A stretch of 64,000 nucleotides of DNA from a virus (lineage: Duplodnaviria > Caudoviricetes), in IMG/VR virus record IMGVR_UViG_3300032321_002024, positions 160,001 to 224,000 of that record. One strand, 5' to 3'. The translations under genes and the position numbers were made by a program. Positions 3,853 to 62,158 of the stretch are shown here, in pieces. Each line of letters opens with the position of its first letter. The first letter of the stretch is position 1. The notes under the pieces are model-generated. The model was given only the letters and a program-made list of their open reading frames with translations. It ran no database searches and was not told the DNA's origin.

Positions 3853-4026
3853 ATGGAAAAAATAATTTACTCTTCTACGATCTCATTAATATTACATATT
3901 TTTATGTTTTATTTTTGTTGGACTTATTGGTCACTTCCCCTAATTATTTTTTGGGCCTTATTTATTGTTTTATATACTGAGAAAAGATATAATTGGAAAA
4001 AATTTAAAAATTCACAAAAATGGTAA
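3853..4026 (+). CDS. small membrane protein (57 aa, not in ORF track)
   Basis: Manual translation MEKIIYSSTISLILHIFMFYFCWTYWSLPLIIFWALFIVLYTEKRYNWKKFKNSQKW; fills the gap in the operon. Confidence 0.55.
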   Translation: MEKIIYSSTISLILHIFMFYFCWTYWSLPLIIFWALFIVLYTEKRYNWKKFKNSQKW

Positions 4027-4742
4027 TAGTAGCATTAAAAAACACAACAAAACTAGTAAAAGGAGCTCGTTATGAAGTTTATCAACTTAACAATTCAACA
4101 ACTACAACAGGATCATACCGTAGAAACAGAGTTTGGATTAAAGGACTTGGCGGTTATGATGTAAAAGGTTTTTCTGATACAAATGGAAATCCCTTACCTC
4201 AAATTGATATTAAGCCGACATTTGTTGAAATTCCAAAATTAGAGTTTGAGTCTCTTAAAAAAGGAGACCTAATTGTTTGTAATAGCAATGGTTATAAAAC
4301 TCTTGTTCCTAACGCAAAGTATAAAATTACAGACTTAAAAGTTGATAAAGTAGAATATACCGCTTGGAATGGAACCAAAGGTGTTAGAAATTATCCTAAA
4401 GTAAAATTTGAAGGTGTTAACCGTTGGTTTGATTTTAGCTATTGGAAATTTAGAGGATTATCTACTGAAGAAATTAGAGAGATTTCTTTAAGTCAAGTTT
4501 TAGAAGGAAAAGATCCAGAAATCATCAAAACTGATAAGTTAAGAAAAATTGACCACGTTAAGAATAAAGACAAAGAACTTATTCTTTATTTATCTAAAGC
4601 AATTTTTGATTCTAATAGAAATAACATGGACATTATTGGATGGGCCTCTAAGATGGGTTCAAAAATGGGAATTGAAAGAAAAGATTATGATTATCTTTTA
4701 AATCTACCACTTAAAGAAATTATTGAAAAATTTGAAAACTAA
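4020..4742 (+). CDS. hypothetical protein
   Basis: 240 aa ORF in operon. Confidence 0.7.
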   Translation: MVIVALKNTTKLVKGARYEVYQLNNSTTTTGSYRRNRVWIKGLGGYDVKGFSDTNGNPLPQIDIKPTFVEIPKLEFESLKKGDLIVCNSNGYKTLVPNAKYKITDLKVDKVEYTAWNGTKGVRNYPKVKFEGVNRWFDFSYWKFRGLSTEEIREISLSQVLEGKDPEIIKTDKLRKIDHVKNKDKELILYLSKAIFDSNRNNMDIIGWASKMGSKMGIERKDYDYLLNLPLKEIIEKFEN

Positions 4743-26901: not shown

Positions 26902-27030
26902 GGGGATGTAGCTCAGTGGTAGAGATTAAACTTCTCTTTTGAAATTTTACCTTGTAAGAGTGTTGATTGAAAGAGTTACTTCGTATATTTTGAACATATA
27001 AGGTCGTTGGTTCGAATCCAACCATCCCCG
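26902..27030 (+). tRNA. atypical tRNA (anticodon TGA, short variable loop) interrupted by a 57-nt insert
   Basis: Removing 26925-26981 gives a 72-nt cloverleaf GGGGATG..GCTC/GAGC..TATAT-TTTGAAC-ATATA..TTCGAAT..CATCCCC-G. Confidence 0.65.
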
Positions 27031-27036
27031 CTAAAT

Positions 27037-47929: not shown

Positions 47930-49354
47930 ATGAAGTTTCTACAAACATACGAAGGATTGAATAAGGCTTATAGAAATAAGTCACTACCACATGCTGGTGA
48001 ACCAATTCACTCAGGTGATAAGATATCTATTTTACAACAAGACTGGTTCGAGAAACTTTTACCTGAAACTTTTACTATACACTCTAATCCAAATATTAAA
48101 AAATTAAATAAAGACTTGACCATCACTGATATTGATGGAAATAAAGAATATGTTTTTGATAAAAATGAATGCACAATTGATAATGGATTAGTTCAGTTTA
48201 GTTATTACTACAATAGTGCTGATCAACAAGATGAAAAAAACAAACATAAAAGACCAATACCATTAGATCCTAATTATGTTTTAGAAAATGGTGAGCCATC
48301 TATGCTTGAATTTGACATACACTTTTCAAAAATAGGACAAGGTGATATTTTTGCAGAAGATGATGAAATAAAAATGCTTGTTGATATTACTTATGGTAAT
48401 AATATGGCAGTTGAGTTTTCATTGGAAGCTCCTAATAAAATTAATATTGTTCATTATACATCAGTTGGGTCTAAATATGATTCAGAAACACACTGGGGTT
48501 TCACTCATGAGTCAATCGATGACTTAGTAAAGTTTTTTAATGCGTTTAATCACGGTATAGAACTTACCTCTGATGATTTAAATTTTTTAGATGAAAACTA
48601 TGATAGTTATAAACATCAAGATGAAAATCCGAAACACCTTTATAATGATGATTCAGATTTAATTAAATTTGGAAATTCCTATGAAGAATCCTTCACTGAA
48701 AAAGAAGATATCTTTTTGATTATTAATAATGCTAAATCACCTTTATTTAAATATTTTCCAAAAGTTGCTAGATACTTAAGAGTAAAAGATATTCCTTATA
48801 AAGCAGCTTGTTCACCTGAAGAAGTTCAAAGATATAATCAAGAATATAATATTATTGGATGTTTTTCTACAGGTTCTGACTATAGTATGAAATCACCGGA
48901 CTCAAAAGCAGAATTTGCGGCATCTGAGGAAGCACTAAGAATTTTAAAATGTCCTATACTAGCAATGTGTTATGGATTTCAATCAATGGTTAAGTTCTAT
49001 GGACAGAACGTTGATGGTGGTGAATTAAATTGTGGTTTATTTAACCTAACTGATTTTGATTCAGAACATTTTTTATTTAAGAATATTGACCTTACTGAAC
49101 AAAAAGTTAATTTCTGTTTCCATGACTATCCGGTTAATGTTCCGGTTGACTTTGAAAATATTGCTATGTTAGGTGAGACAATAGCTGGGATATCTAATAA
49201 GAATTTAAAAAGGTATGGAATACTTTTTCATCCAGAAGAATTAGAAGAAACTTGCATAATTTTAGATAATTTTGTTAATGAATGTAAAATTTCTACACCT
49301 ACTAAATTACTAAAACTTCAAACTTTTGAAAATTTTATTAAAAAATCTTTGTAA
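47930..49354 (+). CDS. fusion of an unknown phage domain and a class I glutamine amidotransferase-like domain
   Basis: PILAMCYGFQ (nucleophile Cys) and FHPE; N-domain paralogous to 34843-35397. Confidence 0.75.
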   Translation: MKFLQTYEGLNKAYRNKSLPHAGEPIHSGDKISILQQDWFEKLLPETFTIHSNPNIKKLNKDLTITDIDGNKEYVFDKNECTIDNGLVQFSYYYNSADQQDEKNKHKRPIPLDPNYVLENGEPSMLEFDIHFSKIGQGDIFAEDDEIKMLVDITYGNNMAVEFSLEAPNKINIVHYTSVGSKYDSETHWGFTHESIDDLVKFFNAFNHGIELTSDDLNFLDENYDSYKHQDENPKHLYNDDSDLIKFGNSYEESFTEKEDIFLIINNAKSPLFKYFPKVARYLRVKDIPYKAACSPEEVQRYNQEYNIIGCFSTGSDYSMKSPDSKAEFAASEEALRILKCPILAMCYGFQSMVKFYGQNVDGGELNCGLFNLTDFDSEHFLFKNIDLTEQKVNFCFHDYPVNVPVDFENIAMLGETIAGISNKNLKRYGILFHPEELEETCIILDNFVNECKISTPTKLLKLQTFENFIKKSL

Positions 49355-49378
49355 AATAGAAACTTTTTTCTAAATTTG
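49348..49378 (+). promoter_or_regulatory. Bacteroidota-type promoter of tRNA operon 5
   Basis: TTTG-N19-TAAATTTG; GAATATATA at 49411-49419. Confidence 0.7.
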
Positions 49379-49426
49379 TATAGAAAATTGATAAACAAAC
49401 AAAAATAATTGAATATATACTTAACA

Positions 49427-49519
49427 ATGAAAAACTTAAATGTAAATATCGTAGTAAATCAACAACCGCAGGATCAAGATCGTGTCGGAGTGGCTAACTA
49501 TGTCTTTACAATAAGTTAA
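49427..49519 (+). CDS. attenuator leader peptide 5 (30 aa)
   Basis: MKNLNVNIVVNQQPQDQDRVGVANYVFTIS; QQPQDQD matches downstream Asp, Asp, Pro and Gln tRNAs. Confidence 0.85.
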   Translation: MKNLNVNIVVNQQPQDQDRVGVANYVFTIS

Positions 49520-49540
49520 AAATTTATATAACAAATTTGT

Positions 49541-49573
49541 AAAACCCGGTTAGTAATCTAATCGGGTTTTTTT
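49541..49573 (+). terminator. attenuator terminator 5
   Basis: AAAACCCGGTTAG-TAAT-CTAATCGGGTTTTTTT. Confidence 0.85.
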
Positions 49574-49580
49574 GTTTTTA

Positions 49581-49652
49581 GGTCTATTAGGGTAGTGGTT
49601 ATCCTTCCTCACTGTCTATGAGGAGACGCGAGTTCGATTCTCGCATAGACCG
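49581..49652 (+). tRNA. tRNA-Asp(GTC)
   Basis: CCTCA-CTGTCTA-TGAGG. Confidence 0.9.
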
Positions 49653-49716
49653 CAAGTTGGGTTGTGAGTGACTTCCCGTTTTGGCTTAAGCCTTAGGTAT
49701 GGAACTCTCAAATTTT

Positions 49717-49789
49717 GGTCTATTGGTGAAATGGCTTATCATCCCACCCTGTCACGGTGGAGTAGACGGATCGTAACCGTCATAGACCG
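49717..49789 (+). tRNA. tRNA-Asp(GTC)
   Basis: CCACC-CTGTCAC-GGTGG; T-loop ATCGTAA. Confidence 0.88.
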
Positions 49790-49853
49790 CACAAAGTAAC
49801 TGTTTGGTGGTGAAAGTACTCTTTAGGGAATAGAGTAAAATAATTCTCAAAAA

Positions 49854-49927
49854 CTAGGTGTAGCTCAGTTTGGTAGAGCGGGGAGTTTGGGACTCTCAGG
49901 CCGCAGGTTCGAACCCTGTCACTTAGA
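49854..49927 (+). tRNA. tRNA-Pro(TGG)
   Basis: GGGAG-TTTGGGA-CTCTC. Confidence 0.9.
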
Positions 49928-49935
49928 CTTAAAAT

Positions 49936-50010
49936 TGTCCTGTAGTGAAATTGGCATCACGTATCATTTTGGCTGATAAGTTTGAGGTTCGAACCCTCAC
50001 AGGACAACCA
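49936..50010 (+). tRNA. tRNA-Gln(TTG), CCA encoded
   Basis: TATCA-TTTTGGC-TGATA; ends ACCA. Confidence 0.88.
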
Positions 50011-50068
50011 GATATAAGACCTTCCGAGGAAAGACCTTTATTTTAATATATAAAATAAAAAATAAATT

Positions 50069-50884
50069 ATGGAATGGTCGGAAATTGAAATCAATTTTTT
50101 AATTAATAATTATGAGAAAGGTGTGGATTTTTGCTCAAATGAGTTGAAAAGAACTAAATTGGGAGTTACAAAAAAATTAAAAAAATTAGGATTTAAATTT
50201 GTTAAAATTAAAGAAAAATATAGAAAAAATAATATAGAGATAATTATCAAAGAATCAAAAAGTATTGGAGAAGTTTTAGATAAATTAAATCTGAGAAGAG
50301 CGGGCGGTAACTATGCTGTTATAAAAAAATACATAATATTGTATAATTTAGATATAACACACTTTACAAACGAAAACAACTCTATATTCAATGTAGTTGA
50401 AAATTTTGTTAAAAAGTCTTTAGAAACCTATCTAGTTGAGAATTCAACGGCATCGAGAGGAAATGTTAAGAGAAGATTGTTAGAAGAGAAAGTTTTAAAA
50501 AATGTTTGTTCTCTATGTGGACAAGATGAAAACTGGAATGGAATGAATATCTCATTAATATTGGACCACATAAACGGAGTTTATAACGATAATAGATTAG
50601 AAAATCTAAGAATTGTTTGTCCTAATTGTAATGCCGGATTAGATACACATGCTGGTAAAAACTCTAATAAAAAAGAAAGATCGAAAAAAATAATTGATAA
50701 GGAAATTGAAAAAAGATTGTATAATGAAGGAAGACGAAAGGTAGAGAGGCCTGATTACGAGGATCTAAAAGAAGATGTTTTAAAAAACGGATATTCAGCT
50801 ACTGGTAGAAAATATGGAGTTAGCGATAATTCTATCAGAAAGTGGATAAGATACTATGAAAAAATATTAACAATTGAAAAATAA
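50069..50884 (+). CDS. HNH homing endonuclease
   Basis: CSLCG..LDHINGVYNDNRLENLRIVCPNC; C-terminal HTH (GRKYGVSDNSIRKW). Confidence 0.9.
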   Translation: MEWSEIEINFLINNYEKGVDFCSNELKRTKLGVTKKLKKLGFKFVKIKEKYRKNNIEIIIKESKSIGEVLDKLNLRRAGGNYAVIKKYIILYNLDITHFTNENNSIFNVVENFVKKSLETYLVENSTASRGNVKRRLLEEKVLKNVCSLCGQDENWNGMNISLILDHINGVYNDNRLENLRIVCPNCNAGLDTHAGKNSNKKERSKKIIDKEIEKRLYNEGRRKVERPDYEDLKEDVLKNGYSATGRKYGVSDNSIRKWIRYYEKILTIEK

Positions 50885-61018: not shown

Positions 61019-61025
61019 CAAAAGA

Positions 61026-61055
61026 GTTCTCAACGGAGAACAACGTTCTTTGAAA
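61026..61055 (+). promoter_or_regulatory. boxB-like hairpin plus boxA-like antitermination site
   Basis: GTTCTC-AACG-GAGAAC hairpin followed by GTTCTTTGAAA. Confidence 0.55.
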
Positions 61056-61059
61056 TATT

Positions 61060-61897
61060 GTCTTTAACAGTCGGTTTCGGCTGACTGTGAAAAGAAGGGC
61101 GGCTTATAGTCCTTAAAATAAACTTCGAAAGGAGGATAAAGTGAATCCAAAGCAAAATGGATTTGCGTCTTGAAAGTTCTTCGGAACAATTGAGGTCGAG
61201 TAAGCAAGTGGGATACCACAAATTCTGAGTAGTCGAGGGTAACACTGTAGACCAAATGAGTTTGTGACCAGGCAATTGTAGATTGTTTGGTTGACCTCGG
61301 AAGAGGAATAGGAATAACCCATAGGTCTGTTGCGAGAAGTGTTGACTCACCGGTCTTCATCATTGCGGAGTCCAACTTAAGAGGTGTCTTAAAGTTGAAA
61401 GACAATCAAGTGTACGGGTGGTGCTGTTACTTGACACTCTACTCTCTACCAGGAGAGTTGTTGTGAAGATATCTTAAAAAGTTGTGATGGAGGCATCACA
61501 CGGAGTTGTCCAGTATTCCTGAGTTCAAAAGATTTGGGAGCTGAAAGGTAACCACAACTTCGACAAAATCTACAAAGCACTACAATTTAAATGTAAAAAC
61601 TTAAATCGAAAGTGTTACCTAGTTACTGGTGAAAGGTACCTACTTAGTCGTGAGTGTTCACGGCCACTGAAGCTCGAAAGGCTGATGTGATTTCATCGAA
61701 AAGCTTATAGAGGGTCGAACCTCGAGTCAGCTCGCAAGGTTGAGTAAGTGGATTAAATGGAGAGTAATTAGTAACTTAAGGAGTGGTTAGTCTAACTAAC
61801 CGGTATTGGCAGAATACTTCTCAAAAGGGAGTGGATAAGAAGGGAAACCATAATCTAACAAAAGTTCTGTCGTAATAAGGTGTAATCTCAACCTTTT
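61060..61897 (+). ncRNA. large structured ncRNA, GOLLD-like (boundaries approximate)
   Basis: About 840 nt, GC-enriched, no plausible + strand ORF, many hairpins (GNRA-type loops), located within a tRNA cluster; family inferred from size and context only. Confidence 0.6.
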
Positions 61898-62038
61898 CTG
61901 GTCGGTTCATTGGAACCATTGAGAGCAAGACTCAAACCGACCACGAAGTTTTCGTAGTGGTTAACTTTTCCCTTTAATTAGGGGGTCTACTGAAATGAGT
62001 AAGTAGGGTGGGTACCAAACCCCATACTAAAAAAACTT

Positions 62039-62143
62039 GGCCCGTTCGTCTAGTGGACTCTTAAAAGAGATACAGAAATTTGTGAACGTAGAGGACGCCT
62101 AACTTTTCATTAGGATACAGAGGTTCGAATCCTCTACGGGCTG
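62039..62143 (+). tRNA. atypical Glu-like tRNA with ~35-nt D-loop insertion
   Basis: GGCCCGT/ACGGGCT acceptor, GTCT..GGAC D stem, CCTAA-CTTTTCA-TTAGG arm. Confidence 0.55.
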
Positions 62144-62158
62144 CAACAATCGAATAAT

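Follow-up and report, generated by a model that had tools for sequence, protein, structure and literature searches.

A likely leader-peptide attenuator in front of the Asp, Pro and Gln tRNA genes of an AT-rich phage

Positions 49,427 to 50,010 of a 64,000-nucleotide stretch of the virus record IMGVR_UViG_3300032321_002024 (Duplodnaviria; Caudoviricetes) harbour a short open reading frame (ORF), an intrinsic terminator and genes for two tRNA-Asp, one tRNA-Pro and one tRNA-Gln. The stretch, referred to below as the window, is AT-rich (29.8% G+C) and covers positions 160,001 to 224,000 of the record, which has 262,603 bases and belongs to a giant phage, probably of Bacteroidota. Analysis of the sequence and of its relatives indicates that the locus is likely to be a working ribosome-mediated (leader-peptide) transcription attenuator over a phage tRNA operon, and that the phage probably makes these Asp, Pro and Gln tRNAs only when ribosomes decode the matching codons slowly. 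A leader-peptide attenuator had been proposed here in a first-pass annotation made from the sequence alone, as the fifth of five such elements in the window (attenuator 5); its ORF, codon match, terminator and antiterminator are each backed by relatives.

Leader codons and competing RNA structures

The leader ORF (49427..49519; + strand, as are all features of the locus described here) starts with the ATG at 49427, ends with the stop codon at 49517-49519 and consists of 30 codons plus stop, encoding the peptide MKNLNVNIVVNQQPQDQDRVGVANYVFTIS. Codons 12-18 (49460..49480), CAA CAA CCG CAG GAT CAA GAT (Q Q P Q D Q D), constitute the control block, and by the standard rules of wobble the three anticodons of the downstream tRNAs (Gln, Pro and Asp) can read all seven. 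The first-pass annotation had described precisely this seven-codon block, matching the operon, in a QQPQDQD leader ahead of Asp, Asp, Pro and Gln tRNAs; the block was indeed recovered at 49460-49480 with 7/7 codons cognate, and all other elements of the locus were found in their places. D, P and Q together make up 12.8% of the residues in the long ORFs of the phage, and the probability of a run of at least 7 D/P/Q residues within 29 codons is 1.1e-5. At the codon level, the frequency of the six strictly cognate codons (0.115) results in a chance of ~6e-6. Leader 5 was the only one among 981 mechanical ORFs of 20-60 amino acids in the 262-kb genome to contain a D/P/Q run of at least 5, and the other runs of 7 in the whole-genome six-frame translation were two in number, both poly-Pro. 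Furthermore, when the leaders of the five units of the window were matched to the tRNAs of these units, among which the extra Ser tRNAs were counted, the true assignment was the best of 120 permutations. CAG and CCG represent 16% of the Gln codons and 7% of the Pro codons in the phage genes, respectively, and the leader over-uses both. It may be speculated that this excess heightens the sensitivity of the sensor or serves a need of the RNA structure.

The intrinsic terminator (49541..49573) has a 13-pair stem (49541-49570) with a GC core (CCCGGUUAG / CUAAUCGGG), a UAAU loop and a run of seven T residues at 49567-49573. It folds with -17.1 kcal/mol (z -5.95) and is the only terminator-like site within 49000-50300. 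Two further regions form the antiterminator. Region 2 (49493..49511; GCUAACU .. GU. UUUACAA), in the 3' end of the ORF, is its 5' arm, and region 3 (49537..49554; UUGUAAA AC .. GGUUAGU), which spans the entire 5' half of the terminator, is its 3' arm. GCUAACU (49493-49499) pairs with GGUUAGU (49548-49554), GU with AC, and UUUACAA (49505-49511) with UUGUAAA (49537-49543), which is exactly the helix of GCTAACT..TTTACA with TGTAAA..GGTTAGT that had been read from the sequence before. This 2:3 helix is the minimum-energy fold once the 3' half of the terminator and region 1 are removed. Its energy of -12.6 kcal/mol makes it the weakest of the five antiterminators of the phage, the others being at -25.8, -23.9, -28.1 and -27.2 kcal/mol, and the earlier remark that it is weaker than the other four (-12.6 versus -23.9 to -28.1 kcal/mol) is thus borne out. 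Region 1 (49433..49455) pairs with region 2 in a putative anti-antiterminator or pause hairpin that joins codons 3-10 to the 3' end of the ORF (-21.0 kcal/mol, z -3.4). It carries UGUAAA and CGUAGU, mimics of region 3, as in the classical design with its competition of regions 1 and 3 for region 2. The N-terminal half of leader 5 (49433-49459; N L N V N I V V N) resembles leader 4 (..LNVVNIT..) and is 7/7 cognate to the Asn, Val, Ile and Leu tRNAs that operon 4 encodes. Common ancestry, a pairing constraint on region 1 or cross-talk between the operons could account for this resemblance.

The spacing of these elements agrees with the dimensions of a ribosome. Between the end of the last control codon at 49480 and the start of region 2 at 49493 there is a gap of 12 bases, roughly as far as a ribosome extends from its A site to its front edge. 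The stop codon is located 6 bases 3' of region 2 and 21 bases 5' of the terminator stem. With the usual size of its footprint, a ribosome at the stop codon would cover the upper antiterminator arm, and a stall at the control codons would free region 2. The 21 bases between stop codon and stem are enough for a terminator to function behind a terminating ribosome (compare PMC4824070).

In RNA folding of both states, which the first-pass annotation had named as a check, each helix folds in isolation, and the terminator keeps the minimum energy. When the stalled ribosome was masked in the equilibrium fold, the terminator remained the minimum-energy state and no flip to the antiterminator was seen. 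In the E. coli trp attenuator the 2:3 helix is much weaker than the 3:4 helix, the choice being kinetic. A terminator that is still favoured with the ribosome masked is expected of a kinetic switch, and equilibrium folding therefore cannot decide the mechanism.

The four tRNA genes were all called by ARAGORN and have Rfam tRNA scores of 59.4 bits for the first tRNA-Asp (GTC; 49581..49653), 45.7 bits for the second tRNA-Asp (GTC; 49717..49790), 60.1 bits for tRNA-Pro (TGG; 49854..49928) and 60.8 bits for tRNA-Gln (TTG; 49936..50010). The distance from the T-run to the first tRNA-Asp gene is 7 bases in the window and ~3-6 bases in several homologues. This gap is too small for a promoter and the tRNAs must therefore be transcribed through the terminator.

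Homologous leaders and Gln-only arrays

Homologues were gathered via the upstream protein, with a region 2 plus region 3 pattern (in IMG/VR and in the metagenomes of the Joint Genome Institute, JGI) and with a pattern of the codon block only. The resulting set consists of 19 distinct leaders plus L043, from lake and sediment metagenomes and from huge phages. The looser codon-block pattern matched mostly unrelated coding sequences in IMG/VR, with L043 as the one true homologue. Distant BLAST matches revealed syntenic Pro/Asp/Gln tRNA arrays in the uncultured phages LR745206.1 and LR756502.1 (634,780 and 642,428 bases). Huge phages of >634 kb have been predicted to infect Bacteroidetes (PMC7162821), and the sizes of LR745206.1 and LR756502.1 agree with those of these phages.

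The leader frame is open in 20/20 distinct homologues, with a length of 30-35 codons, and every alignment gap within the ORF is a multiple of three. N-(P/Q)-Q-P-Q-D-Q-D is the block shared by the 16 canonical homologues. Its variation is synonymous (CCA/CCG/CCT, CAA/CAG, GAT/GAC), apart from one P-to-Q replacement that is seen in the window (CCN to CAA) and remains within the cognate set. By contrast, the four codons 3' of the block are hypervariable, with up to six amino acids each, and several of these changes add P or D. Variation that is synonymous or within the set inside the block, next to neighbours that vary freely, indicates selection on the tRNA that decodes each codon and not on the peptide. 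Towards the 3' end of the ORF it is the nucleotide sequence that is conserved, in keeping with an RNA arm. All homologues with enough downstream sequence then have tRNAs of the Gln/Asp/Pro set within a few bases, while order and copy number differ (Gln-Asp-Pro, Pro-Asp x4-Pro, Asp-Asp-Pro-Gln). Within the Asp/Pro array of LR745206.1 (L001) ARAGORN also called a tRNA with a four-base anticodon (gtag) at 3996-4069.

Both helices are maintained across the homologues. In the terminator 98.4% of the alignment cells are paired and one A-U/G-C pair covaries in 9/19 sequences. The antiterminator is 93.4% paired and has four pairs with double-sided changes, among which a change from C-G to U-A in 4 sequences. 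The antiterminator counts were reached by at most 3 of 500 shuffles, and slid controls were 23-59% paired. L043, retrieved from the codon block alone, is the sole unbiased homologue. Its terminator stem differs (CCCUCAUAAG / CUUAUGAGGG), its region 2 ACUAACUAUG is still complementary to CAUAAGUUAGU, and an antiterminator of -14.0 kcal/mol is predicted.

A separate array of Gln tRNAs only was found in five relatives (L001, L002, L022, L025 and L043). Each of these arrays has its own terminator and its own mostly-Gln short ORF upstream (e.g. MTTTQQIQQQQINQTD or MTTSFQQQQQQQINRTD), and in the two that were folded (L001 and L002) the stop codon lies within the 5' arm of an antiterminator. They make up a second attenuator family (L001 4270-4392; L002 3566-3682; L022, L025, L043), in which a nearly pure Gln leader (MTT.QQ.QQQQIN.TD) precedes arrays of three or four tRNA-Gln genes. 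The window is without a separate Gln unit; its tRNA-Gln follows tRNA-Pro after 7 bases and its single leader has four Gln codons.

The other four attenuators of the phage share with attenuator 5 the promoter, the codon-matched mini-ORF and the terminator abutting the first tRNA. Attenuator 5 differs from them by the most compact block (7/7) and the weakest antiterminator. Compared to numbers 2-4, only attenuator 5 has a strong predicted 1:2 hairpin, so that its naked RNA would default to termination. In the unit at 32866-33097, consisting of a leader (MNKLATYYYEAEG..) and a terminator, a further promoter motif (33012-33042) was found before tRNA-Glu and tRNA-Tyr; judged from this motif, the tRNA-Glu/tRNA-Tyr block may be transcribed independently of its attenuator as well.

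Proposed mechanism and alternative explanations

From the sequence and comparative data we infer leader translation, stalling, the geometry of the ribosome footprint and regulated read-through, which together suggest the following course of events. Host RNA polymerase would start at the Bacteroidota-type promoter candidate at 49348..49378 (TTTG (-33), 19 bases, TAAATTTG (-7)), or possibly at the AATATATA gene-start motif (49412..49419), 7 bases 5' of the leader ATG. The host polymerase, which obeys intrinsic terminators, is the likely transcriber because of the Bacteroidota-type promoter and because the closest large relatives match in size the huge phages predicted to infect Bacteroidetes. 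A ribosome would then translate the 30-codon leader. With Gln-, Pro- and Asp-tRNA plentiful, it would reach the stop codon at 49517 and mask region 2, and the terminator would form and stop transcription 8 bases short of the first tRNA. If the leader is left untranslated, region 1 would pair with region 2, and the terminator would form as well. Slow decoding of CAA, CAG, CCG or GAT would stall the ribosome at 49460-49480, with its front edge just short of region 2. Region 2 would then pair with the nascent region 3, sequestering the 5' half of the terminator and allowing read-through into the Asp, Asp, Pro and Gln tRNAs, and the read-through transcript would be processed into tRNAs. Since the product tRNAs would speed up decoding of the sensed codons, this amounts to a negative feedback on tRNA supply.

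Several observations weigh against this scheme. The antiterminator is non-significant on energy alone (z -1.6), 14 of 200 shuffles being as stable. With a stall at the last Asp codons region 1 is uncovered and 1:2 pairing is thermodynamically allowed; a steric block of the 1:2 helix is assumed for this position. This helix is 70% paired across the homologues, its core GUAAA/UUUAC being kept in 17-18/19. The RNAalifold consensus consists of the terminator and a small local hairpin within region 2, which may act as a transient competitor. The search pattern fixed the lower stem of the antiterminator, and the invariance of this stem in 19 sequences is uninformative. Moreover, as the homologues are closely related, few independent events underlie their conservation and their few covarying pairs. 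Gln codons are retained in the first leader of those relatives whose Gln arrays are split; this retention fits serial read-through, although the model does not demand it.

Two of these lines, the energy of the antiterminator and the close kinship, with which co-inheritance of leader and tRNAs is expected, are also what would speak for an unregulated locus. In that case the ORF would encode a small conserved peptide or none, the terminator would be leaky, read-through would be constitutive and the codon match would be a by-product of shared ancestry. This explanation is very improbable: selection at the peptide level would not keep the D/P/Q block alone while adjacent residues vary, the C-terminal half of the ORF shows the nucleotide conservation of an RNA arm, a run as long as that of leader 5 has a probability of ~1e-5, and the match is found at all five operons of the window. 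Indeed, the unrelated Gln-only leaders before Gln-only arrays follow the same rule.

The same Gln-only leaders bear on a second explanation, in which the hardware is identical and the signal is amino-acid starvation or general translation stress, so that the element would be a stringent-type switch lacking tRNA feedback. Leader-peptide attenuators such as those of trp and his respond to the charged fraction of a tRNA, and starvation for Gln, Pro or Asp would stall the ribosome too. Codons for Asn, Val and Ile, which are also abundant in the N-terminal half of the leader, are in line with this explanation. However, extra tRNA is useless if the amino acid is missing. The five leaders are each tailored to their own downstream tRNAs and the Gln-only leaders track the tRNA content where arrays are split, both of which fit product feedback better than a general stress sensor. 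A starvation signal is therefore considered very improbable.

A third possibility, an RNA switch of the T-box or L20-leader kind that binds a protein or a tRNA, with an irrelevant ORF and a factor that stabilises one of the helices, is scarcely credible, since the sub-threshold Rfam L20_leader match that hints at it (49470-49580; 28.9 bits, E 0.0017) scores well under the gathering score (58.7), neither a T-box nor any further family was matched, and the in-frame indels and synonymous-only variation of the block represent codon-level selection that an untranslated switch leaves unexplained. L20_leader (RF00558) was rejected as a family assignment on this score. Rfam searches at the gathering threshold and with E up to 1 returned the tRNAs and this match only, and no T-box.

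As to what would trigger the attenuator, candidates are the codon demand of a phage of 30% G+C, decay of the host tRNA pool in infection and cleavage of tRNAs by host defence. tRNA-targeting immune systems of the PrrC/RloC, PARIS and retron types were considered in this respect (PMC10264068, PMC11555353, PMC12409363). It is conceivable, though doubtful, that the attenuators are sensors of the tRNA pool for counter-defence, in which a host nuclease would deplete tRNAs and only the replacement block that is needed would be switched on. If so, the codon list of a leader would be a record of the tRNAs that the phage expects to lose.

Genome setting and comparison with known systems

All 25 tRNA genes called by ARAGORN in the 262,603-base record fall inside the 64-kb window. 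The promoter candidate at 49348-49378 overlaps the 3' end of the upstream neighbour gene, which encodes a class-I glutamine amidotransferase (GATase) domain. The pattern TTTG-N17-21-TANNTTTG occurs 16 times in the window, compared to 4.7 expected, every occurrence being on the + strand, and among the features that it precedes are leaders 1 and 4 as well as the RNA genes at 60.6-60.9 kb. The AATATATA motif has 96 copies in the genome, on both strands, about half of them at most 20 bases upstream of the ATG of an ORF, with distances to the ATG clustering at 4-8 and 16-20 bases. In the window it is found at 49412-49419 and at 11 other sites, preceding ordinary genes (47930, 50069, 59204+) as well as leaders 1, 4 and 5. 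With this distribution, the motif may serve as a promoter specific to the phage or in translation initiation, and such a function could render the leader mRNAs nearly leaderless.

Behind the two tRNA-Asp genes, spacers of 63 bases (49654-49716 and 49791-49853) contain no significant fold, terminator or Rfam match, and comparable gaps follow the tRNA-Asp genes of LR745206.1. The stretch 3' of tRNA-Gln showed neither significant structure nor a terminator. Directly 3' of the operon lies an HNH homing-endonuclease-like gene (50069-50884) whose DNA is similar to that of HNH genes in unrelated Bacillus, Yersinia and Streptomyces phages. Elsewhere in the window a full-length GOLLD RNA is located at 61501-61894 (context 61020-62040; 281.7 bits, gathering score 150). 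It is flanked by two tRNA-Met genes and has three Bacteroidota-type promoter motifs upstream, and the ~480 bases 5' of the Rfam match are GC-richer, ORF-poor and outside the model. When introns were allowed, ARAGORN also called two tRNA-like genes with insertions of 40-50 bases (26902-27031 and 62039-62144), the former with an Rfam tRNA score of 45 bits.

The purpose of tRNA genes in phages has been a matter of debate for fifty years, with codon compensation and replacement of tRNAs destroyed by defence as the main views. If the attenuator described here operates as proposed, the phage would not simply express its tRNAs but measure the decoding speed at their codons and respond. The question of phage tRNAs would then become an experimental one, in which the tRNA pool is altered and the switch is read. 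A textbook mechanism would be extended to a new class of targets, and with the regulated product being what is sensed, no feedback on translation capacity could be shorter. The element would be a compact, codon-specific sensor of tRNA availability, for which the 20 homologues and the Gln-only versions provide natural variants for testing.

Full-text literature searches yielded no description of leader-peptide attenuation of tRNA genes, phage or cellular. Attenuation is not mentioned in the study of huge phages by Al-Shayeb et al. 2020 (PMC7162821), and Naville and Gautheret 2010 gave no match for tRNA gene, tRNA operon or Bacteroidetes. A Phe-rich, attenuator-like leader of the E. coli tRNA-Phe gene pheV was considered as a precedent and dropped: the MG1655 locus is a plain promoter abutting the tRNA, with no such ORF, and leaders of 3-4 nt are given for pheU and pheV in PMC7049720.

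The closest likeness is with the trpL, hisL, pheL, thrL and ilv leaders of E. coli and Salmonella, in which regulatory codons likewise follow one another in a short leader that is translated. These leaders share with the phage element the 2:3 (antiterminator) and 3:4 (terminator) pairing of a four-region design, whose 1:2 pairing is putative in the phage, the mimicry of region 3 by region 1, a stop codon placed for masking of region 2 and an antiterminator that is weaker than the terminator. The thrL and ilv leaders are multivalent, as is the phage block with its mixture of Gln, Pro and Asp codons. Unlike the classical leaders, the element is phage-borne, has a Bacteroidota-type promoter and shows no similarity to any Rfam leader family.

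T-box riboswitches likewise choose between terminator and antiterminator before translation-related genes, depending on the state of a specific tRNA. However, translation plays no part in a T-box, which binds the uncharged tRNA directly via its specifier codon and T-box sequence, whereas in the phage leader the signal would be read by a ribosome on the ORF. In the pheM leader of E. coli pheST, encoding phenylalanyl-tRNA synthetase, a gene of the translation apparatus is under attenuation by the level of its charged cognate tRNA. There the target is a synthetase protein, a single amino acid is sensed and the system is chromosomal, while the phage leader would control tRNAs and read three species at once. 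The classical leaders regulate biosynthetic enzymes, whereas the phage element would regulate four tRNAs, its product being the very molecule that is sensed. Control of tRNAs in place of biosynthetic or synthetase proteins is the point of novelty, and the mechanism itself is unaffected by it.

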